Source: Armatimonadota bacterium
Lineage (GTDB): Bacteria; Armatimonadota; Fimbriimonadia; Fimbriimonadales; Fimbriimonadaceae
Assembly: GCA_037141835.1 (NCBI GenBank)
Contig: JBAXBU010000007.1
Location: forward strand, 365 to 64,364
Length of the DNA: 64,000 nt
Direction of reading: 5' to 3'
Shown here piece by piece: positions 79 to 12,244 of the stretch (position 1 is the first letter of the stretch; the number at the start of each line of letters is the position of its first letter). The translations under genes were made by a program, and so were the position numbers. The notes under the pieces are model-generated. The model saw nothing but the letters and a program-made list of their open reading frames with translations. It was not told the DNA's origin and did no database searches.

Positions 79-1263
79 TTATTCTTTGAGAACCCTTAGT
101 AAAGCGACAAAATCAATCAGCTTTCCTAGTTGGCCACTGTAATCGGGATTTTGGCTATCGATGTCTCGACCAGAGACATTCAGGGCATTCCTTATCTCGT
201 GAGGTGATCGTCTTGGACAACTAGAAAGTGCTGCGGCAAGGCAACCGGATACGATGGGAGCAGAGAGAGAGGTTCCCGACCAAACCGCACTACCTCCGTC
301 ATACCACGCGCTGAGGACGCCAGAAGCTGGAGCAGCTACCCTTGCCACCGAATTCCAATTGCTAAATGGTGCCTTGGTATTGTCAGACATTAGTCCAGTT
401 ACACAAATGACATTCGAGTATCCAGCTGGATACAGGGTCATATTTGAAGCGTTGTTGCCAATTGGTGATACTATAACGGATCCGGACTGTTCAACCCAAT
501 CAAGAAGACCTGGGAAACCTGCAAGTTGATTGCGTGAACCAAGGCTTAGGTTGATGATCTTTGTGTCATTTTCCACGCAAAACACGACCCCTTGTAGGAC
601 CGACCAGGAGTCGCCGACTCCGTCACTGTCGGCTGACTTAGCGATGACAAGAGGTGTATTTGGAGCTATCTGAAGGATAACTCCTGCTACCATTGTCCCG
701 TGTCCTGCTCCTTCATCAAAAGCGCCATTAAGATTAGTATCCAAGTTGCGAGGTGAATCGTTGATGGATCTTGAACTAGGAACAAATGACATTCCCGCGA
801 CGACATTATCAAGGATTGAAGGCTGGCTAAATGAGACACCAGTATCGACAATTCCAACCTTTAAATTGGAGGACAGAGTGGCGAGGGGAACAAAATTGAT
901 CTGCTTGAATATGCCCTTGTTGATGGCGGCAGAGGTTTCTCGGTCAAAGATAGCGGCAACCGAACTTCCGTGACTACTATAATTCCCTCTAAAGCTGGTT
1001 AGGGCTTCGTCTTCGGCCCAAACAATTCGTTCATCTGACTCTAAAAATTGGGAATACAATTGTCCGGATTCGCCTTCAACCTCCAATCTTACGAACGGTG
1101 ACTTACCGGCTTGCTCACAGTCAAGGATGAACGGATAGTCCCTTACTAAGGCAGCAATATCTGTTGGGTCTTTGAACCTGACAATTATTCCGCGGGCTTT
1201 GGATTGGCAAAAGAGAGTTAGAAAAGCAGCTACGGCAAAAAGCAGACGATAGTGAGTATTCAT
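79..1263 (-). CDS. Secreted S8 (subtilisin-like) serine peptidase
   Basis: Signal-peptide-like N-terminus; catalytic triad motifs GIVDTG, GAGHGTMVAG, WSGTSLSAP. Confidence 0.93.
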   Translation of the reverse strand: MNTHYRLLFAVAAFLTLFCQSKARGIIVRFKDPTDIAALVRDYPFILDCEQAGKSPFVRLEVEGESGQLYSQFLESDERIVWAEDEALTSFRGNYSSHGSSVAAIFDRETSAAINKGIFKQINFVPLATLSSNLKVGIVDTGVSFSQPSILDNVVAGMSFVPSSRSINDSPRNLDTNLNGAFDEGAGHGTMVAGVILQIAPNTPLVIAKSADSDGVGDSWSVLQGVVFCVENDTKIINLSLGSRNQLAGFPGLLDWVEQSGSVIVSPIGNNASNMTLYPAGYSNVICVTGLMSDNTKAPFSNWNSVARVAAPASGVLSAWYDGGSAVWSGTSLSAPIVSGCLAAALSSCPRRSPHEIRNALNVSGRDIDSQNPDYSGQLGKLIDFVALLRVLKE

Positions 1264-1499
1264 GGGGGAACCAAACTTTGTGAAGAGCTCAACAAAGTGG
1301 GGTATTGGCTCCTCTCAAGTCGGTTCATTCCTTGCTTGATGCAAACCAAGACCTGACAGAAAAACCAATTTTCCGGTTTGGCGACGAACGCCGTATTGGA
1401 TGCTTCAGCGGAGAATCCAAAAATTCAAAAAGTTATTGTAAATAGGCGACAGAATTTGCCAGTGCCACCAGTTTCGAATTTTATCTAAGGACAGAAAGG

Positions 1500-2684
1500 T
1501 TATTTTCTCAATAAGAACATTAGATTCTTGAAGTCTAAAAGCCTTCCGAGCTGTCCTCGATAGTTCAAATTAATACCGTCAATATCCCGTCCGGAGTTTT
1601 TTACGGCTGACCTTATCTGGCTCGGTGTCTTAAATGGTTTGGCCGAAAGCCCTGCCGCTATACAGCCGGTAACAAGGGGAGCAGAAAATGATGTCCCAGA
1701 CCAAACGGCAGTTCCACCGTCGTGCCAGGCGCTCAATATTCCTGTTGCCGGTGTAGAAACCATTGCCTTTGACTCCCAATTGCTAAATGGCGCTTTGGTG
1801 TTGTTGGGTAACAATCCTGAACAGCAAATAACGCTAGAATAGCCAGCCGGGAAGAGAGTCATTTTTAAGCCATTATTGCCAATCGGAGAAACAATAACAC
1901 TTCCCGCATCACTAACCCAATCAAGGAATTCCGAAAAACCTGCGAGGTGATTGGGAGACCCTAGGCTTACATTGATAACCTTTGCTCCGTTCTCAACACA
2001 AAAGACAACTCCCTTCATGACTGACCAAGATGTTGCAATCCCGTCGCTGTCCGCAGACTTGGCTACAACAAGGCGGGTATTTGGCACAATCTGAAGAATG
2101 ATCCCGGCAATCATGGTTCCGTGTCCAGCGCCTTCATCAAACTGACCATTAAGGTTTGTATCAAGATTTGTTGGGACATCGTCAATTGTCGGCGAACCAT
2201 GTACGAAGCTCGCGCTGGCGACCACGTTCCTTCGAATCGATGGTTGAAACCTTGAAACGCCTGTGTCGACGATACCTACTCGAATTGGCAAAAGCCTTCG
2301 GGTTAATCCAGACAAATTAATCTGTCTCCAAATGCCAGTATTCAAAGCAAAGGTTGCGGTTCGATCATATATTGCGGCAACGGAACTCCCATGACTACTT
2401 TGATTTTCTGGAGAATCAAACTCCTCTTCTTCTTCAACCCATACGATACGGACATCCTGACCTAATGCAAGTTCAAGTGCCTCCATATTTGAACGGGAAA
2501 CTTCAAATCGAACAAATGGAGATAACCCAGCTACCTCTACTCCGAAGATTTGTGGGTAATCGGCGACAATGGAAGGTATTTGAGCCGGATCGACTACTCG
2601 CGCAATGACACCATTAGCCAATGCAATATTGATGGTTGCCATCAATGAGATGAGAGTTATGAGAACACGAAGGTTTTTTTTCAT
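1500..2684 (-). CDS. Secreted S8 serine peptidase, paralog of 79-1263
   Basis: GIVDTG, GAGHGTMIAG, WSGTSFSAP. Likely start MKKNLR at 2684, overlapping the CHAT stop codon (ATGA at 2681-2684). Confidence 0.93.
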   Translation of the reverse strand: MKKNLRVLITLISLMATINIALANGVIARVVDPAQIPSIVADYPQIFGVEVAGLSPFVRFEVSRSNMEALELALGQDVRIVWVEEEEEFDSPENQSSHGSSVAAIYDRTATFALNTGIWRQINLSGLTRRLLPIRVGIVDTGVSRFQPSIRRNVVASASFVHGSPTIDDVPTNLDTNLNGQFDEGAGHGTMIAGIILQIVPNTRLVVAKSADSDGIATSWSVMKGVVFCVENGAKVINVSLGSPNHLAGFSEFLDWVSDAGSVIVSPIGNNGLKMTLFPAGYSSVICCSGLLPNNTKAPFSNWESKAMVSTPATGILSAWHDGGTAVWSGTSFSAPLVTGCIAAGLSAKPFKTPSQIRSAVKNSGRDIDGINLNYRGQLGRLLDFKNLMFLLRK

Positions 2685-5329
2685 TGTGAGTAGCCGCCAA
2701 ACATTACGAGAGATCCCCAATAAGCCGGATCAACAAATTTAGATTTTATGTCCGCCCTTGCTTCACAAAGTGAAGAACTGACCGACTTTCCATCTTTTAG
2801 TTTACGATAGAATGAGCCAAATCCGTACTCGGCCACCTGGTCATTGAGTGGCCAAAGCGACCCAATAACGACTTCGCTCCGCCTTGCTAAAAAAGCTCGT
2901 GCGAGCCCTTGAGGCTCCCAGCCTGATGGTTGTCCCATTGACGCGGAATCGCAAGAAGCGAGGGTTGCAAATCTTGTTCGAAAAGATGATCGGGCAATAT
3001 CGCAAGCCAAAAGATGTCCATCCTGAAGCTGAATACTCGAGAACATCGGATTTTCGTGGTCATATTTTCCGTGCCCCGCGACGTGGATGAGATCAAATGT
3101 CTGATCTGCCGTGGACTTCAAAATTTCATCCACCGTTGAAAAGATTTTTGCGTCCGGAAACAAAGAACGAATTTGTTCGACTTCACATTCAATATGAGGG
3201 AGGTCTTTCCGTGAAAAATACCAAATTCCAACTTTGGGGTTAGAACCTAGGACATGTTGATCGGGAGATGTTCCTGCACTTGACCGAAGATGGAGTACGG
3301 TTTCCTGAGGAGTAAGAAGAGCCCAGGGGATTTGGTAGGCAACGTCTTCGAGGCAAACATGAAGAATGTTGTGATGCGACTCCAAAAATTCAACGCCTAA
3401 GTCTGCCCTTAGGCGGTCCAATTCTTGATTCAATCGTTTCACATCCGATTCAAATCCAGACAACGGTGCCATGAGCTCAAAATGAATCCACCGAAGTCTT
3501 TTGATGAGATCCTCTCTGGTCATCTTAAGTCGCCTACCTTTTTCCCTCGATAACCAAGCTGAGCCTTGAGTCAAGAAGACGAAAGAGTTGACCGGAATTG
3601 GAGATAATGCAGATCTTTCAGGTGTCCCCTCAAGCAATTGGTTCACCCCAATTTGTTCGAGATATTCTCGGACAAGGGATGGTTTGCTTTGAGTTCCTTT
3701 TTCAAGTTGCCGCAAAGGTCCACCGGGAAGTTGATCGCCGCCTTCTGCCGAAACTTCCTGTCTAATTTGACTCAGGATAGATTGAGCTTTCTCGTTAAAC
3801 GAATTCGAGCTCCCAAGCATAAATTCGTCGAGCAATGTGATCGATCTCAAGTCCGAAATGACTTGAATTGCTTCCTTAATCGAGGTAGTCGAATTCCTTT
3901 CGATCAGCAGGCTCAGGTAACTCCGAATGCTCACTAAACATGGTTGGATCAAGCTCGTTCTAGCGGTAACCGACGAAAGCTTGGCTCGATAAGACAATAT
4001 TGCCTTAACCATCTTCCGATATTCAGATAGGGCTGTTTGAACTGATTCAGCTTTATTGGCACGAATAGCATGGATTCGCCAAGCCTCGTTCACAAAGCCA
4101 AATCGTCGAATGATCCGACTGGCTTCAGCCAATATCTCTTCATTTTCCTTTGTGATCGACGCAAGATCCAGCAGAGCACCAACGAGGAAATGGAACATGC
4201 GTCTTTTGCGCAGGTCCACAATGGATTCCTTCAGCACCTTTTCAGCTTGCTTTTTTCTTCCTAAAGCAATTTCGGACCGTGCAACTCCGATTTGAGCAAG
4301 ATTTACCAGAGCTAGATCACCGAACTTTCGATAGATTCGGGCAGCTCGAACGTACAAGCCTTTTGCCTCTGTCGCATTTCCTTGAAATAGTTTTACGTCT
4401 CCGAGTCCTACCAGACTGTTACCGAGATTAAGTGGCGACTGGTGGATACCCTTAGAATGAATCGCGGATTGAAAAGCGTTTCCCGCCGATTCAAAAACTT
4501 GAAGCACCAACCAGGCGTCGCCAAGAAATTGACCCAACCGTGCAAATTCTAAGGAGTCCGGATCAGACAGGGATCTAAGCTCTGAAAAAATTCTGATCGA
4601 CTCGTCCGCCTCACCCATCAACAGATGGCATTGCCCAACGTTAACTTGAGCGTGGCGACTATAGGCTGTGGCTCCCATCTCCGCCATTGAGTCTCTTGCC
4701 TCGGCGGCCAATGCGAAAGTCTTGCTCGGAAAATCGGTATAGAGAGCGGCGCTCGACGCTCCTAGGAGAGCAGATGCCGCCTCTAATTTGAACGGCGAGT
4801 TCCTGAGGCATTCGAATGCTCGGGCAAAGCACCGGCGAGCGTCATGATGGCGGTCTGCCCAGAGATAAGCATTTCCCGTATTTAACCAAGCCCGTCCAGC
4901 GAGACCCAACTCGCCTAATGCTTCCAACTTAACCGCAATCGATTTTCCCAGCCGAACAGCAGAATCTGTCTTGCCTGCTCGAGCAAGGCTATCGATGGCC
5001 CCGGTTTTAAAACTGATCTTTTCGATCGATCCTTTCGCAAGTGTTCCGGAGTGGACAAATGCCTTTGCACTAGAATCCCAGTTTCCTCGGATTCTTTCCA
5101 ATGCGCCTTTTGCACGCCACGCAAATGATGGATCATCCCCGAACTTTCCAACGATTTCCCACCCTTCGGCAAGATTCCTAGCCGCAATTGGGTTTTCGCC
5201 AAGTAGCTTCGCAACCCGGAGAAAGTATTGTTCGGAAAATCCGGACGGTGGTTTGTGAGTCTTTAGTAGGGCCCTTTTGCTGGTTAAGTCAGCTCTTTCA
5301 AAGTTCTCCAGCAGGCTAAGTGTTTCCAT
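2681..5329 (-). CDS. TPR-repeat + CHAT (caspase-like, clan CD) protease
   Basis: Ala/Leu-rich helical TPR-like repeats over the N-terminal ~450 aa; C-terminal CHAT motifs LIHVAGHG and TLASCDS, followed by GLARAFL..VIGSLWPLND and YWGSLVMFG. Confidence 0.9.
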   Translation of the reverse strand: METLSLLENFERADLTSKRALLKTHKPPSGFSEQYFLRVAKLLGENPIAARNLAEGWEIVGKFGDDPSFAWRAKGALERIRGNWDSSAKAFVHSGTLAKGSIEKISFKTGAIDSLARAGKTDSAVRLGKSIAVKLEALGELGLAGRAWLNTGNAYLWADRHHDARRCFARAFECLRNSPFKLEAASALLGASSAALYTDFPSKTFALAAEARDSMAEMGATAYSRHAQVNVGQCHLLMGEADESIRIFSELRSLSDPDSLEFARLGQFLGDAWLVLQVFESAGNAFQSAIHSKGIHQSPLNLGNSLVGLGDVKLFQGNATEAKGLYVRAARIYRKFGDLALVNLAQIGVARSEIALGRKKQAEKVLKESIVDLRKRRMFHFLVGALLDLASITKENEEILAEASRIIRRFGFVNEAWRIHAIRANKAESVQTALSEYRKMVKAILSYRAKLSSVTARTSLIQPCLVSIRSYLSLLIERNSTTSIKEAIQVISDLRSITLLDEFMLGSSNSFNEKAQSILSQIRQEVSAEGGDQLPGGPLRQLEKGTQSKPSLVREYLEQIGVNQLLEGTPERSALSPIPVNSFVFLTQGSAWLSREKGRRLKMTREDLIKRLRWIHFELMAPLSGFESDVKRLNQELDRLRADLGVEFLESHHNILHVCLEDVAYQIPWALLTPQETVLHLRSSAGTSPDQHVLGSNPKVGIWYFSRKDLPHIECEVEQIRSLFPDAKIFSTVDEILKSTADQTFDLIHVAGHGKYDHENPMFSSIQLQDGHLLACDIARSSFRTRFATLASCDSASMGQPSGWEPQGLARAFLARRSEVVIGSLWPLNDQVAEYGFGSFYRKLKDGKSVSSSLCEARADIKSKFVDPAYWGSLVMFGGYSQ

Positions 5330-5870
5330 CTCCAGACTCGTCGATCACGATCGGAAGAAGGATCGTGATCGTTTCATTTTGTAGGGAAAGTGGCTCAATG
5401 TTCGCCGCTTGGACGTCCAACTCAAATTCACCATTTTCGCCACAAGGTGAGCTCATTTGTCCAGACCAAACTGTCCAACCAGGTTCGGATGTTCGCCCCC
5501 AAATACGCCAACCGTTGGGAATGTCTTCTAACTGGATTCTTACTTCAACCTCTTCCGAAACAAATTTGAACTGGGTTACCGTGCCTCGTGCAAAGCCGAG
5601 AAGTGGCTGAGGACGAAAAATCTGAGCAATCGAGAACTTCCGATTTGTTTCTGGCATCATCGCCTTGACTTTGTCTATAAGATTTAGCGGCGCGGAACGA
5701 TGCTGAACCTCAAGAGAACGATGGATGGTTCGATACTGCTCGATGACCAATACTTCGGTGTCAGAGAGCAAATCGCGCGGAGCCTCAGTGCTCCTGGCTA
5801 AGTCCCAAAGCTCAGCCAATCGTAATTCAGTTAGGTTCGATTGCATGTTCAAATACTCAAGAGGACTCAA
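5316..5870 (-). CDS. Hypothetical 184-aa soluble protein, putative anti-sigma factor/CHAT partner
   Basis: Overlaps both the sigma gene and the CHAT gene by 14 bp; helical N-terminus and beta-rich C-terminus. Function inferred only from position. Confidence 0.7.
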   Translation of the reverse strand: MSPLEYLNMQSNLTELRLAELWDLARSTEAPRDLLSDTEVLVIEQYRTIHRSLEVQHRSAPLNLIDKVKAMMPETNRKFSIAQIFRPQPLLGFARGTVTQFKFVSEEVEVRIQLEDIPNGWRIWGRTSEPGWTVWSGQMSSPCGENGEFELDVQAANIEPLSLQNETITILLPIVIDESGDGNT

Positions 5871-6534
5871 TGTCCGGATTTAATTCACTTTCAAAAAATT
5901 TTGCCGAAAGAAGTGCTTTTCGAAGCCGCTCGATACATCGGGAGCGAGTCGGCCCGATCGACCCCGATGGAATATCCAACTTGGTCTTAATCTCTTCGTA
6001 GCTACTTTCGTTTTCAGAATAGAGCATCGAAAGGAGCTGGGGACACTTGCCCGGTAGCTGGCTCATAACACGCCTAATTGCCCCAGATTGGATCGCTGCA
6101 ACAGTTACTTCTTCGATGGTCGCTTCTTCGTTCGCCAGCATTTCATCGAGATTCTCGATTGCGTCAAACGAAACCGCAGACTTATCGCGGTTTTGGCGGT
6201 GAAGCCGAATCGCTTCCCGAGCTGCGGTTGTCGCTAACCACTTTGGAAGGGCTAGCGCGGAATCAATACGGTCAAGATTCTTGTAAAGGATCAAAAACAC
6301 TTTTTGAAAGGTGTCCTCGGCGTCCTCATTTCTTAATCCAACTCGATAGATGGAGGACCAAACAAGCGATTGAAAGCGGTCAACCAATACGCTCCAAGAA
6401 GCGGAATCGCCAGCTTTGCACTTGCGAACCAATATTTCTAAATCTGAAACAAAAGGTTCCTTACCCATGCGTTTGGCGAGTATATCATAGGCTTTTTCTA
6501 CTTGAGCTACGGTCAATGGCGGAACAATCTTCAA
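5857..6534 (-). CDS. ECF-type RNA polymerase sigma-70 factor
   Basis: Region 2 (AEDTFQKVFLILYKNL, LPKWLATTAAREA) and region 4 (SYEEIKTKLDIPSGSIGPTRSRCIERLRK); start codon uncertain (TTG). Confidence 0.92.
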   Translation of the reverse strand: MKIVPPLTVAQVEKAYDILAKRMGKEPFVSDLEILVRKCKAGDSASWSVLVDRFQSLVWSSIYRVGLRNEDAEDTFQKVFLILYKNLDRIDSALALPKWLATTAAREAIRLHRQNRDKSAVSFDAIENLDEMLANEEATIEEVTVAAIQSGAIRRVMSQLPGKCPQLLSMLYSENESSYEEIKTKLDIPSGSIGPTRSRCIERLRKALLSAKFFESELNPDIESS

Positions 6535-6601
6535 AGTCTTTGGTTCTGGAGGGCGTATTCCAGAATTGGAGACTTGAAAACCTAGTTAATTGAACATAAA
6601 C

Positions 6602-7276
6602 CTAAATCCGCTTCCAGTATCCGCGCGGGTGAAAGGTGACCATATACTTTTCTCTCGAAGCATCATTTTCAAATGGGGGTTTGGTCTTAAGCCAATTATC
6701 CAATGCTTCCATAGGGCCAGGTCCGTGTTCCTTAAGTACTGGATGACCAAAAACGTTGGTGTCTTCAATGACCAAATAGCAACCCAACGAGACACAATGC
6801 GCCCAAACATCTAGTTCCTTTCGGACGTGAGACTCGGAGTGATCCGAATCCAAAATCACCATGACCCGCTTTCCTTCAGCCCGCGCTTTGACTTTTTCAA
6901 CAACTGATGCTTCAATCGAGGAAGCAGTGATGAACTCGACTCGAGGATGAGTCGGCAAATTGGATTGGGGCTCAATATCAATTGAAACAATTTCTCCTTC
7001 TCCCATCAAATCAAAAAGGGATGCATAGAACATCGCGCTCCCACCATCAAATGTGCCTGTTTCGATGATCAGTTGAGGACGAGTTTCATAGATGATTTCC
7101 TGCTTAATCCAAAGATCAAAGGGTATCTGCTGTACGGGGGTCCCCATCCACCTTGTGTTCTTCCAAGTGGTATCTCGACGATGAAAATAAATCAGCTTGT
7201 GAAAAAGCGTAATCGTTATCGGGGTGAGAACTCGCCAAAGGGCCGCGTTAAGTTTGAGGCGAATTCTATGAAGCAC
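6602..7276 (-). CDS. CmcI / cephalosporin hydroxylase family SAM-dependent methyltransferase
   Basis: WMGTPVQQIPFDLW, IIETGTFDGGSA, VILDSDHS, YLVIEDT motifs. Confidence 0.85.
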   Translation of the reverse strand: MLHRIRLKLNAALWRVLTPITITLFHKLIYFHRRDTTWKNTRWMGTPVQQIPFDLWIKQEIIYETRPQLIIETGTFDGGSAMFYASLFDLMGEGEIVSIDIEPQSNLPTHPRVEFITASSIEASVVEKVKARAEGKRVMVILDSDHSESHVRKELDVWAHCVSLGCYLVIEDTNVFGHPVLKEHGPGPMEALDNWLKTKPPFENDASREKYMVTFHPRGYWKRI

Positions 7277-7333
7277 ATCTTATTTTAACTGGAAACCTTC
7301 CCCAAAAGAGTCTTAGGTAACCTGAACCTAGGT

Positions 7334-9647: not shown

Positions 9648-10871
9648 CTATGCCGCAAGGGATTTTTCTTGCTCTGTTGCCCAGGAAGTTGCCTTGATAA
9701 AGATTTCAGGCGACACTGCCGGGAGTGTTTCTTGCACTTGCTCCCATTGTCCCAATTCGACTTCGCGTACACATTTAAGTGTCTTATCACATTGGCTGTC
9801 ACAGAAATTCCCTAATAGTGCTTCTCGAACATCGTCAGGGAGTGGTAATTCGGCGAGGGCTTCGCCCATTGGTAAATCAATGAGGGCGTCAATGAGTGAG
9901 AACATACCTAGCATAAAGTGCTTATCTGGCTTATCGAATCCGTTTTCACGGGCAGCCTGTTCGCAAATTCGAGCCCGAATCATCGCCATTCGGTATAGCT
10001 CGGGTGTCTTTCCTGGAATGCTTGTGATAACTGCAAGTGATGCCATCGTACGAATCTTCGCCGTACCAAGAAACATCAGACCCTGCTTGATTGAATCGAC
10101 TCTTTTTGGTAGTCCATTAGCAACACAGTTGACCAGTCTAAGCACCTTGTGGCAGAGTGCAACATTCGCAATAATGAGCTGTTCAAGCTCGTCCATCGTA
10201 ATTTCTGGATCTTGGATTTTCGCGAGCAAACTCAAGGACATTGATTGTACTGCTCGAACACCAGAGCCCCGAATGGTCTGAGGCTTCGCAAAAAAGTATC
10301 CTTGGAAAAGGTCAAAACCCAAAGACTTGCAAAGTTCAAACTCGGCTTGAGTTTCCACTTTCTCTGCGAGCCAGATTTGTCCCTTTCGTTTGCATCCGGG
10401 CATCTTCTTACGAAGCAAGCTCTCTTCCATGCCCATGATATCTACTTTGACAAGGTCAACCAAGGGCAAGAACTTTGCGTGCCGATCTTCAAAAATGTAG
10501 TCGTCTAAAGCGAGCTGATATCCTCGGCCTTTTAGCTCTTCAATATGGTCTGCAACCTGCTGACTCCAAACCGTATCCTCAAGAATTTCGAGGGTGACAT
10601 TTTTTGGGGGAAGTAACCTCAAGGCATCGCTCCCAAGCATGCATTCCGGAACATTGAAGAAAGCTCTTTTATTTCCCGCCAGCCGGTCTAATCCAACTTC
10701 CATGAGGACGTTGGCAAGTGAGATCACTTCATCTTCCGAAGATATTTCTTGACCAAAAGCAGTATCACTTCTGCGGTAGAGCAATTCATAGGCAACATGC
10801 CTAACATCGCGATCATAGATCGGTTGCCGTGCCATGAAAAAACCACTCTGTTCTGTTCGGGCCTGTACCAT
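9648..10871 (-). CDS. EAL + HDOD domain protein (YuxH/PdeH-like c-di-GMP phosphodiesterase)
   Basis: ARQPI, YELLYR, LEILED, LALDDY, LAEKVET, FQGYFF, then an HDOD-like helical domain. Confidence 0.9.
   Translation of the reverse strand: MVQARTEQSGFFMARQPIYDRDVRHVAYELLYRRSDTAFGQEISSEDEVISLANVLMEVGLDRLAGNKRAFFNVPECMLGSDALRLLPPKNVTLEILEDTVWSQQVADHIEELKGRGYQLALDDYIFEDRHAKFLPLVDLVKVDIMGMEESLLRKKMPGCKRKGQIWLAEKVETQAEFELCKSLGFDLFQGYFFAKPQTIRGSGVRAVQSMSLSLLAKIQDPEITMDELEQLIIANVALCHKVLRLVNCVANGLPKRVDSIKQGLMFLGTAKIRTMASLAVITSIPGKTPELYRMAMIRARICEQAARENGFDKPDKHFMLGMFSLIDALIDLPMGEALAELPLPDDVREALLGNFCDSQCDKTLKCVREVELGQWEQVQETLPAVSPEIFIKATSWATEQEKSLAA
9997..10770. repeat. Direct repeat copy 1 (774 bp), matches 11373-12146
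   Basis: Constant offset of 1376; no mismatch in the lines compared by eye; shadow ORF translations of both copies are identical. Confidence 0.9.
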
Positions 10872-11023: not shown

Positions 11024-12244
11024 TTAGGCCGCGAGCGATCGTTCTTGCTCCTTTGCCCAAGCTACTGCCTCAGCAAACACGTCAGGTGAAACATCCCGAA
11101 GGCTGTCATTTGCCAACATCCAATTCCCGTGTTCGACGCTATGAACGTACTTCAATGTCTTATCGCATTGACTAGACTGGTTTTCGCCCATCAGTGCATC
11201 AAGAACGTCATTAGCAAGCGGGAGTTCGGCAATGACTTCCGACATTGGCATATCGGTCAAAGCGTCAAGCACCGAGAACATTCCTAAAGTAAAGTGTTTA
11301 TCCGGTGAGTCAAATCCAGATTCCTTTGCGGCTTGTTCGCAAATCCGAGCGCGAATCATAGCCATGCGATAGAGCTCGGGTGTCTTTCCTGGAATGCTTG
11401 TGATAACTGCAAGTGATGCCATCGTACGAATCTTCGCCGTACCAAGAAACATCAGACCCTGCTTGATTGAATCGACTCTTTTTGGTAGTCCATTAGCAAC
11501 ACAGTTGACCAGTCTAAGCACCTTGTGGCAGAGTGCAACATTCGCAATAATGAGCTGTTCAAGCTCGTCCATCGTAATTTCTGGATCTTGGATTTTCGCG
11601 AGCAAACTCAAGGACATTGATTGTACTGCTCGAACACCAGAGCCCCGAATGGTCTGAGGCTTCGCAAAAAAGTATCCTTGGAAAAGGTCAAAACCCAAAG
11701 ACTTGCAAAGTTCAAACTCGGCTTGAGTTTCCACTTTCTCTGCGAGCCAGATTTGTCCCTTTCGTTTGCATCCGGGCATCTTCTTACGAAGCAAGCTCTC
11801 TTCCATGCCCATGATATCTACTTTGACAAGGTCAACCAAGGGCAAGAACTTTGCGTGCCGATCTTCAAAAATGTAGTCGTCTAAAGCGAGCTGATATCCT
11901 CGGCCTTTTAGCTCTTCAATATGGTCTGCAACCTGCTGACTCCAAACCGTATCCTCAAGAATTTCGAGGGTGACATTTTTTGGGGGAAGTAACCTCAAGG
12001 CATCGCTCCCAAGCATGCATTCCGGAACATTGAAGAAAGCTCTTTTATTTCCCGCCAGCCGGTCTAATCCAACTTCCATGAGGACGTTGGCAAGTGAGAT
12101 CACTTCATCTTCCGAAGATATTTCTTGACCAAAAGCAGTATCACTTTTTCGGTAGAGCAATTCGTATGCAACATGCTTCACAGTCCGATCATAAATCGGC
12201 TGCCGCGCCATAAAGAATCCCGTGTAATCTTGTTGAACGTTCAT
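11024..12244 (-). CDS. EAL + HDOD domain protein, tandem paralog
   Basis: Same motifs; central protein region identical to 9648-10871. Confidence 0.9.
   Translation of the reverse strand: MNVQQDYTGFFMARQPIYDRTVKHVAYELLYRKSDTAFGQEISSEDEVISLANVLMEVGLDRLAGNKRAFFNVPECMLGSDALRLLPPKNVTLEILEDTVWSQQVADHIEELKGRGYQLALDDYIFEDRHAKFLPLVDLVKVDIMGMEESLLRKKMPGCKRKGQIWLAEKVETQAEFELCKSLGFDLFQGYFFAKPQTIRGSGVRAVQSMSLSLLAKIQDPEITMDELEQLIIANVALCHKVLRLVNCVANGLPKRVDSIKQGLMFLGTAKIRTMASLAVITSIPGKTPELYRMAMIRARICEQAAKESGFDSPDKHFTLGMFSVLDALTDMPMSEVIAELPLANDVLDALMGENQSSQCDKTLKYVHSVEHGNWMLANDSLRDVSPDVFAEAVAWAKEQERSLAA
11373..12146. repeat. Direct repeat copy 2 (774 bp)
   Basis: Matches 9997-10770. Confidence 0.9.

Follow-up and report, generated by a model that had tools for sequence, protein, structure and literature searches.

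In type III-E clustered regularly interspaced short palindromic repeat (CRISPR) systems (craspase), the TPR-CHAT protease Csx29 cleaves Csx30 between its domains, and this relieves the sigma factor CASP-sigma, which is bound by the N-terminal part of Csx30 (PMC10028731). In Myxococcus xanthus, DdvA controls DdvS, a sigma factor of extracytoplasmic function (ECF) type, and unites a CHCC zinc-type anti-sigma (ZAS) domain, a transmembrane (TM) helix and a periplasmic TPR-CHAT module with a His-Cys dyad in one polypeptide; intramembrane proteolysis of the RseP type is thought to be necessary (PMC11506125; structures 8ROT and 8RW5). A further precedent, the CalpL/CalpT/CalpS system, is cited in bioRxiv 10.1101/2023.06.23.546230. 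In this study, we focused on a cassette of genes for an ECF sigma factor, a small protein, a TPR-CHAT protease and subtilisin-like S8 serine proteases, which lies in a stretch of 64,000 nucleotides from the metagenome-assembled genome of an uncultured Armatimonadota bacterium (the window; contig C7, positions 365-64364, of a 3.5-Mb assembly that is 95.6% complete). To our knowledge, CHAT-driven sigma release has so far been shown only with a CRISPR-bound protease (craspase) or with a protease fused to a membrane anti-sigma factor (DdvA).

The gene context of this cassette is not new to the literature, since it has been catalogued in sigma-factor surveys. As outlined in PMC8999054 (citing Huang 2015 and Casas-Pastor 2021), the conserved context of group ECF54 comprises carboxypeptidase(-regulatory)-like, subtilase and CHAT proteins, and proteolytic regulation was proposed for it. 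PMC7826278 describes both ECF54 of the Actinobacteria and its planctomycetal sister group ECF58 as being without an anti-sigma factor. Like ECF54, the window cassette pairs an ECF sigma factor with a CHAT protein and a subtilase, and it appears to belong to, or to sit beside, the ECF54-type context. Unlike ECF54 and ECF58, it is found in the phylum Armatimonadota and its small protein is, by homology, an anti-sigma factor. A first-pass annotation, made by a model from the letters of the window, had named no experimental characterisation of such neighbourhoods; the context is nonetheless not unknown, given the described ECF54 group (PMC8999054) and the characterised DdvA (PMC11506125).

We lean towards reading the cassette as a CRISPR-independent, cytoplasmic, protease-gated switch of an ECF sigma factor. 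Judged from sequence comparison, it fits best among the CHAT-gated sigma switches, as a variant that is split and fully cytoplasmic. Like DdvA, its family combines an anti-sigma factor, bearing the CHCC domain in 40 of 86 members, with a TPR-CHAT module that has the His-Cys dyad. Unlike DdvA, the two are predicted to be separate, soluble and cytoplasmic proteins, the anti-sigma factor has a beta-sandwich in place of the TM helix, an S8 gene is present in the unit, and no CRISPR island or cyclic-oligonucleotide-based anti-phage signalling system (CBASS) lies near the window cassette. With craspase it would share the proposed logic of a TPR-CHAT protease, a two-domain inhibitor and a sigma factor of ECF-like type. 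It differs in that there is no Cas7-11, CRISPR RNA or csx31 at the window cassette, and the activating signal cannot be a target RNA bound by a Cas effector.

Anti-sigma identity of the small protein

The small protein of the window gave no meaningful match in Pfam, NCBIfam or PADLOC. An exhaustive profile search gathered 88 representative clusters of its family, almost all of 170-185 amino acids (aa), and comparisons at the family level show the N-terminal domain to be homologous to ZAS anti-sigma domains. Of 86 members, 40 have HxxxCxxC near residue 27 along with a Cys near residue 5; with the spacing C-x22-H-x3-C-x2-C this is the canonical CHCC ZAS signature. RsiW, the anti-sigma-W factor (5WUQ), is the top PDB match of two family profiles (E 0.0066 and 0.067), and the alignment spans the zinc helix and the conserved AP...AK..MP helix. 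The Pfam zf-HC2 model matches four of the 86 members weakly, an NCBIfam anti-sigma model matches three of 51, and the NCBIfam model of RsrA matches one. The most telling result for the anti-sigma identity came from a scan of the phylum. The N-terminal ~65 positions of the profile detected open reading frames (ORFs) of 455-548 aa directly beside ECF sigma genes, and these ORFs score 25-36.6 bits on Pfam zf-HC2 against a cut-off of 22.2.

At the aligned zinc positions the window protein itself lacks both Cys and His, and the same holds for its whole clade. Despite this loss, the clade keeps the downstream AP...AK..MP helix motif. The window protein is assigned as an anti-sigma factor through its family alone. 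Because a TM-like segment is absent from all 40 small proteins scanned, they are called soluble. By homology, then, the small protein is a soluble anti-sigma factor, one previously unrecognised here, and this assignment is the main new point of the study. It upholds, at the level of the family, the role of sigma inhibitor that the first-pass annotation had given to this protein.

The family resembles RsrA with SigR, and the N-terminal domain of RsiW with SigW, in its helical domain with C...HxxxCxxC (in those 40 members) and in the adjacent ECF sigma gene. It differs from RsrA and RsiW in the additional conserved C-terminal beta-sandwich, in the obligatory linkage to CHAT and S8 genes and in the loss of the zinc ligands in the window's clade. 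An AlphaFold2 model built from 51 sequences (mean predicted local distance difference test score, pLDDT, 83) has three to four N-terminal helices, a low-confidence linker (residues 81-90, pLDDT 59) and the beta-sandwich (pLDDT 82-96), in which R103, G117, G139 and F141 hardly vary, if at all, across the family. We propose that the sandwich docks on, or is sensed by, TPR-CHAT. A Foldseek search of the model against the PDB gave nothing at E<=0.001, only generic beta-sandwiches. With regard to the carboxypeptidase-like protein of the ECF54 context, Pfam sees no CarboxypepD_reg domain in the beta-sandwich of the window protein and matches this domain weakly in the Nonomuraea small protein.

The zinc site also bears on an account that we rate as unlikely, in which the sigma factor and its anti-sigma factor only regulate an effector operon of two proteases and CHAT spares the anti-sigma factor. 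The anti-sigma factor itself would then sense, through RsrA-like thiol/zinc chemistry or a ligand of the beta-sandwich, and CHAT and S8 would be outputs with other substrates. An ECF sigma factor and its anti-sigma factor are as a rule transcribed together with their target genes, and all four genes here lie in one apparent operon. In addition, the CHCC site of the 40 members is the ligand set of the redox-sensing RsrA. However, the window's clade and a clade with permuted gene order keep the cassette despite having lost the zinc ligands.

Conservation and distribution of the cassette

A pattern scan with two CHAT motifs over 185,579 species genomes returned 45 loci, nearly all of them labelled Armatimonadota, Fimbriimonadales, Fimbriimonadaceae or Chthonomonas. 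The closest lies in a metagenome-assembled genome (MAG) named 'Armatimonadota bacterium' and is 90% identical. Neighbouring PSCyt/PSD genes had hinted at a planctomycete as the source; this origin was rejected since the relatives that bear names are Armatimonadota. Essentially every long enough locus, among the 45 from genomes and about 12 from metagenomes, holds four genes together (sigma factor, small protein, CHAT and S8), and these four form the conserved unit. The flanks are unrelated from locus to locus. With about 50 independent recurrences of this set, the arrangement is not due to chance. In a scan with hidden Markov models, the small protein, CHAT and S8 were found in every sufficiently long locus, and the sigma gene usually stood ahead of them. 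It is divergently oriented in three lineages, and none was detected nearby in two loci (L031 and L057). The 4-bp overlap of CHAT and S8 is kept in most loci, and an overlap of 11-26 bp between the small gene and CHAT is widely kept. The loci with a divergent sigma gene (L010 at 6916-7290, L011 and L028) have an extra ORF of 124-132 aa, without a known family, between the sigma and anti-sigma genes.

The gene content survives rearrangement, which is strong evidence of functional coupling. A paralogous type found within the window's own family is ordered sigma-CHAT-small-S8, another order, S8-small-CHAT-sigma, is seen in one locus, and all four genes are kept in distant families of the phylum. 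The neighbourhood survey that the first-pass annotation had called for thus finds the cassette conserved and tolerant of permutation. In every gene order the small gene adjoins CHAT, while its adjacency to the sigma gene is not constant. That the most constant neighbour of the anti-sigma gene is CHAT and not sigma argues against a sigma/anti-sigma pair that serves merely as regulator of the two proteases.

Among 401 genomes sampled from the phylum, the small-protein profile matched in 52. Strong full-length matches are concentrated in the window's family, with 21 of 47 genomes, and in its genus, with nine of 13. The cassette is therefore accessory and patchy. The 3.5-Mb assembly of the window has just one CHAT gene and one small-protein gene. 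Other genomes hold two divergent cassettes: L019 and L037 are both from MAG JAIOPU01, with CHAT proteins 40% and 30% identical to that of the window, and genome G129 gave two matches. Because some genomes hold two divergent copies, the cassette family has diversified into paralogous types within genomes. One locus (L025; JADZEW010000021.1, 228 kb) comes from a MAG labelled 'Methanoregulaceae archaeon'. Its cassette is nearly identical to the Fimbriimonadaceae cassette L042, the proteins being equally long and the S8 N-termini almost the same, and the contig is probably mis-binned rather than an archaeal occurrence.

A counterpart outside the phylum is present in the actinobacterium Nonomuraea gerenzanensis, in keeping with the first-pass annotation, which mentions similar neighbourhoods in other phyla. 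Its order is S8, ECF sigma, a 147-aa protein and TPR-CHAT. The start of the 147-aa gene overlaps the sigma stop, and its product has a weak CarboxypepD_reg match (E 0.005, below the cut-off). Homology between the small proteins of Armatimonadota and Nonomuraea was not detectable by hhalign (probability 0.9%). Apart from the Nonomuraea record, tblastn of CHAT against plasmids gave matches at the level of the CHAT domain only, and two CHAT genes on Streptomyces plasmids stand without a sigma or S8 gene beside them. The Nonomuraea record (L083; NZ_LT559118.1, 'plasmid I') is chromosome-sized, 11.85 Mb with 10 annotated features, and counts of 'plasmid' matches that include it mislead.

The TPR-CHAT protease and the linker arginine

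The protease has a CHAT domain (Pfam PF12770, 7.8e-24, 85 bits against a cut-off of 24) and TPR repeats (TPR_12, 1.1e-13), and full-length homologues were found at about 30% identity. His749, His753 and Cys793 are present without exception in the 41 complete CHAT proteins of the cassettes. The motif GAIDSLARAG, which lies outside the catalytic domain, is invariant or nearly so in the TPR-CHAT alignment (G110 in 40 of 41 sequences, D113 in 38, R117 in 39), members at about 30% identity included; used as a search pattern, it retrieved Armatimonadota loci. Neither a signal peptide nor a TM segment was seen in the window protease. When a TM segment was defined as a 19-residue hydrophobic segment reaching 1.6, all 40 small proteins and 38 of 39 CHAT proteins stayed below the threshold, the exception being a doubtful ORF in L040. 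The sigma factor likewise has no hydrophobic segments. Since such segments are absent, CHAT and the sigma factor are predicted to be cytoplasmic, as is the small protein. In L040 (7473-11315), the CHAT frame is a 1278-aa ORF that overlaps an S8 ORF in another frame; the contig is GC-rich, and long spurious ORFs, a faulty assembly or a frameshift may be the cause.

The closest solved CHAT domain is that of DdvA (8ROT, E 5.7e-5 with the family profile), and the craspase chains in the PDB follow at about 0.02. The Csx29 model NF041237 gives the window protease 16.7 bits where its cut-off asks for 300, and the match covers no more than the catalytic core. No likeness of the small protein to Csx30 was found in Pfam or NCBIfam, profile searches of the PDB give RsiW and not 8EEY, and no Csx30 chain is among the 50 best Foldseek matches. 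The protease is not a Csx29 by this score, and membership of the cassette in the craspase type was rejected on it, on the missing likeness to Csx30 and on the finding of no cas genes at the loci examined.

The linker between the two domains of the anti-sigma factor contains a nearly invariant arginine, Arg87, which is conserved in 99% of 91 aligned family sequences (at least 90% in the family alignment A4) in the context G-Φ-R-[G/S/D/N]. The window linker reads ...LLGFAR|G.... Among 12 distant and permuted cassette proteins, at about 15-20% overall identity, 11 keep G-Φ-R, and the remaining one (L081) has Q-A-R. Arg87 sits in the sole low-confidence block inside the model of the small protein (residues 81-90). 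Many clan CD enzymes cut after Arg. Arg-directed cleavage by separase is cited in PMC11506125. Because separase and many clan CD enzymes have this preference, Arg87 is a candidate P1 residue for cleavage by CHAT. The near-invariant Arg in an exposed linker counts against an account in which CHAT spares the anti-sigma factor. Moreover, a protease is tied to anti-sigma cleavage in three experimentally studied systems (PMC10028731, PMC11506125, bioRxiv 10.1101/2023.06.23.546230).

The CHAT domain also resembles BovA of the Borvo system in PADLOC (9e-16). This resemblance, the patchy occurrence in genus and family that is typical of accessory genes, and the links of related CHAT-sigma systems with defence (PMC10028731, PMC11506125) would suit an anti-phage or abortive-infection module. 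In such a module a phage-triggered CHAT would kill or arrest the cell by broad proteolysis and the sigma factor would be an accessory. We hold this to be improbable. Flanks in the window and the examined relatives are housekeeping or metabolic with no defence island, PADLOC gave no other significant component match for the cassette, and a dedicated anti-sigma factor and a secreted subtilisin would be left unexplained. The defence account could also simply name the cue to which the protease responds.

The sigma factor and its upstream element

The sigma factor matches Pfam Sigma70_r2 (3.7e-10) and region 4, and the NCBIfam model TIGR02937 (sigma70-ECF) with 64.6 bits against a cut-off of 42.9. 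It shares 33% identity (82 bits) with the sigma factor of the Nonomuraea cassette, compared with 51 bits for the best paralogue in its own genome. The cassette sigma factors of Armatimonadota and Nonomuraea have in common the C-terminal signature P-[SA]-GS-[IV]-GPT-[RK]-x-RC-[IL]-E-[RK]-LR, located at 5917-5970 (region 4) in the window and within 4260-4808 of L083. This distinctive signature might serve as a marker of this ECF group.

About 48 bp upstream of the sigma gene lies the element AACCAGGTTT-N16/17-CTGGAATAA, which is kept in the window, L014, L005 and L007/L008, that is, in the window's clade. In a search of 38 sigma-upstream regions for bipartite motifs, the clade-specific element was found in seven loci, compared with at most five in shuffles. 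The window holds one occurrence, against 0.95 expected by chance, and none was found in the gap between S8a and S8b. Generic scans for sigma-70 promoters and terminators stayed at or below the expectation from shuffles. The element is a candidate autoregulated promoter, a function proposed from its position and conservation. The first-pass annotation had suggested that the subtilases may belong to the sigma regulon; the motif searches of window and genome gave nothing for this beyond operon membership.

The S8 proteases

Both S8 proteins of the window match Pfam Peptidase_S8 (96 and 98 bits; 3.8e-27 for S8a), and the closest PDB entries to S8a are AK.1 protease, subtilisin BPN' and thermitase. 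The Asp/His/Ser triad is intact in S8a, in S8b and in 49 of 49 cassette S8 proteins. Every Armatimonadota cassette S8 examined has a Sec-type signal peptide, as called by a heuristic scan of N-termini, and a propeptide-like segment. The Armatimonadota S8 proteins are thus predicted to be secreted, whereas that of Nonomuraea, with its ECF54-type context, has no signal peptide. The two S8 genes of the window are 236 bp apart and their products are 58% identical. A twin S8 was found only in the window, L014, L021, L049 and L003. By this distribution S8b is a lineage-specific tandem duplicate outside the conserved unit, and the twin subtilase, which the first-pass annotation had counted as part of the unit, belongs to the window's subclade alone. 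Some relatives of the window's clade have a 108-aa ORF without a Pfam family near S8 (L008 5444-5770; L005 14681-15007; L006 14672-14998), either between CHAT and S8 or right after S8; the window lacks it.

Because the Sec signal peptide is on S8 and none is on the other three proteins, S8 probably acts in a different compartment from the sigma factor, the small protein and CHAT. This favours S8 as an output and not as a source of ligands for the TPR array. The annotation had proposed, as one example of a ligand, that a peptide made by the secreted subtilases activates CHAT, which is unlikely with S8 exported and the sigma factor, small protein and CHAT without signal peptide or TM segment. 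The same evidence bears on a wider two-step cascade, in which S8 supplies peptides as the ligand of the TPR array, or one protease processes the other, CHAT acting on the S8 zymogen or the reverse. In its favour, S8 is retained whatever the gene order, usually with a 4-bp overlap with CHAT, the Nonomuraea S8 could share the compartment of CHAT, and a cascade from CHAT to a caspase is described for a type III-B system (bioRxiv 10.1101/2023.06.23.546230). However, contact in Armatimonadota would need an interaction before export or the re-import of peptides, and no transporter is conserved in the cassette. We therefore give such a cascade little credence.

Organization of the locus

The coordinates are collected in Table 1. 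The description of the locus by the first-pass annotation was accurate in most respects: all five genes are co-oriented minus-strand ORFs, the His and Cys of CHAT are intact, and both S8 enzymes keep Asp, His and Ser behind Sec-type N-termini. Its claim of tight coupling holds for the 14-bp overlap of the small and CHAT genes and, if S8a starts at the ATG at 2684, to which its paralogue S8b aligns, for the ATGA in which that start overlaps the CHAT stop. It probably does not hold for the supposed 14-bp overlap of sigma and the small gene. The first 8-10 residues of the 184-aa reading are absent from 13 of 15 close homologues, 10 of which are exactly 176 aa long. Translation therefore probably begins with the ATG at 5846, so that a 10-bp gap is left after the sigma stop. 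Even so, the genes stay tightly packed.

Table 1. Features of the cassette in the window (coordinates in nucleotides from the first letter of the window)
Feature	Position	Strand	Remarks
ECF-type sigma-70 family sigma factor	5857..6534	(-)	225 aa from TTG start
Sigma region 2	6187-6387	(-)
Sigma region 4	5917-6066	(-)
Small protein, soluble anti-sigma factor by homology	5316..5846	(-)	176 aa; 184 aa with TTG at 5870
Putative anti-sigma domain of the small protein, residues 1-65	5652..5846	(-)	helices 7-18, 29-46, 54-63
Codon of Arg87 in the small-protein linker	5586..5588	(-)	Arg95 in 184-aa numbering; candidate P1 for CHAT
C-terminal Greek-key beta-sandwich of the small protein, residues 90-164	5355..5579	(-)
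TPR-CHAT cysteine protease	2681..5329	(-)	caspase-fold, clan CD; 882 aa
TPR array	~4037-4909	(-)
CHAT domain	2696-3442	(-)
TPR-CHAT N-terminal motif GAIDSLARAG, residues 110-119	4973..5002	(-)	outside catalytic domain
Catalytic His753 of CHAT	3071..3073	(-)	HVAGHG
Catalytic Cys793 of CHAT	2951..2953	(-)	LASCDS
S8a, subtilisin-like serine protease	1500..2684	(-)	394 aa from ATG at 2684; ORF 1500-2720; signal peptide, propeptide, catalytic domain
S8a Asp140	2265-2267	(-)
S8a His188	2121-2123	(-)
S8a Ser332	1689-1691	(-)
S8b, tandem paralogue of S8a	79..1263	(-)	predicted secreted
Promoter-like bipartite element AGGTTT-N16-TGGAATA	6556..6583	(-)	in 67-bp gap upstream of sigma

The flanks of the cassette in the window are of housekeeping type: GalT, two EAL-HDOD proteins, GH18, an esterase, the cysteinyl-tRNA synthetase CysRS and a thioredoxin-like protein. 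The annotation's statement that no Cas gene is present agrees with what was covered here: no cas or csx family occurs among the ten annotated window ORFs (150 aa or longer) that lie between 7.3 and 21.6 kb or among the called genes of related metagenome loci, the whole genome not having been searched for cas. A few kb from the cassette, on the minus strand, lie the tandem paralogous EAL + HDOD proteins (9648-10871 and 11024-12244; 407 and 406 aa), which are probably signalling proteins related to cyclic di-GMP with degenerate or atypical domains.

Proposed mechanism

In the protease-gated switch that we favour, the N-terminal helical domain of the anti-sigma factor would sequester the sigma factor in the resting state. 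Its C-terminal beta-sandwich would engage TPR-CHAT and present the linker. A cytoplasmic cue sensed by the TPR array would activate the His753/Cys793 dyad, and CHAT would cut the linker, with G-F-A-Arg87|Gly as the candidate site. The anti-sigma fragment bound to the sigma factor would then be lost or degraded. The free sigma factor would transcribe its own operon from the conserved upstream element. Such positive feedback would raise the entire cassette, with the exported subtilisin or subtilisins as the output.

The core of this proposal, a protease, an anti-sigma factor and a sigma factor acting in series as in craspase, was already put forward in the first-pass annotation. We regard it as a plausible and well-founded hypothesis, because the cassette is conserved without CRISPR, the anti-sigma factor is supported by homology, and the catalytic residues are kept in every complete member. 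The anti-sigma assignment, the permutations of gene order and the conserved linker Arg place it on better ground than before.

Several points weigh against the switch. The small protein of the window, taken alone, matches no Pfam or NCBIfam anti-sigma model and its zinc ligands are lost, and the RsiW and NCBIfam matches of its family are weak. Foldseek found no anti-sigma match for the two-domain model, a null result that speaks neither for nor against an anti-sigma domain because the helical domain is too small in a two-domain query. The promoter-like element is confined to the window's clade, and no regulon can be resolved from it because it has nine matches genome-wide compared with three for the reversed control. 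The role of S8 is not accounted for, and the S8 of the Nonomuraea cassette has no signal peptide. Lastly, the co-occurrence of the four genes would fit equally well with a sigma/anti-sigma pair that merely regulates an operon of CHAT and S8 effectors.

Implications

A more specific form of the switch, towards which we are nearly undecided with a slight inclination to doubt, holds that a stand-alone TPR-CHAT directly senses a cytoplasmic cue with its TPR array and cuts a dedicated soluble anti-sigma factor at the conserved G-Φ-Arg of the linker, with subtilisin secretion as the output. If so, this could be the free-living form that gave rise to both the fused DdvA and the Cas7-11-docked Csx29/Csx30/CASP-sigma, and the cassette would amount to a minimal three-protein, caspase-like transcription switch.

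If the proposed switch is true, it would be the simplest form of a CHAT-gated switch, made of three soluble proteins and an exported protease. A minimal protease-gated transcription switch would also have potential as a tool. The cassette is widespread and easy to reconstitute. It would provide a handle on the activation of TPR-CHAT without a Cas partner, and on the control of the 'orphan' ECF54-type sigma factors that are listed without an anti-sigma factor.

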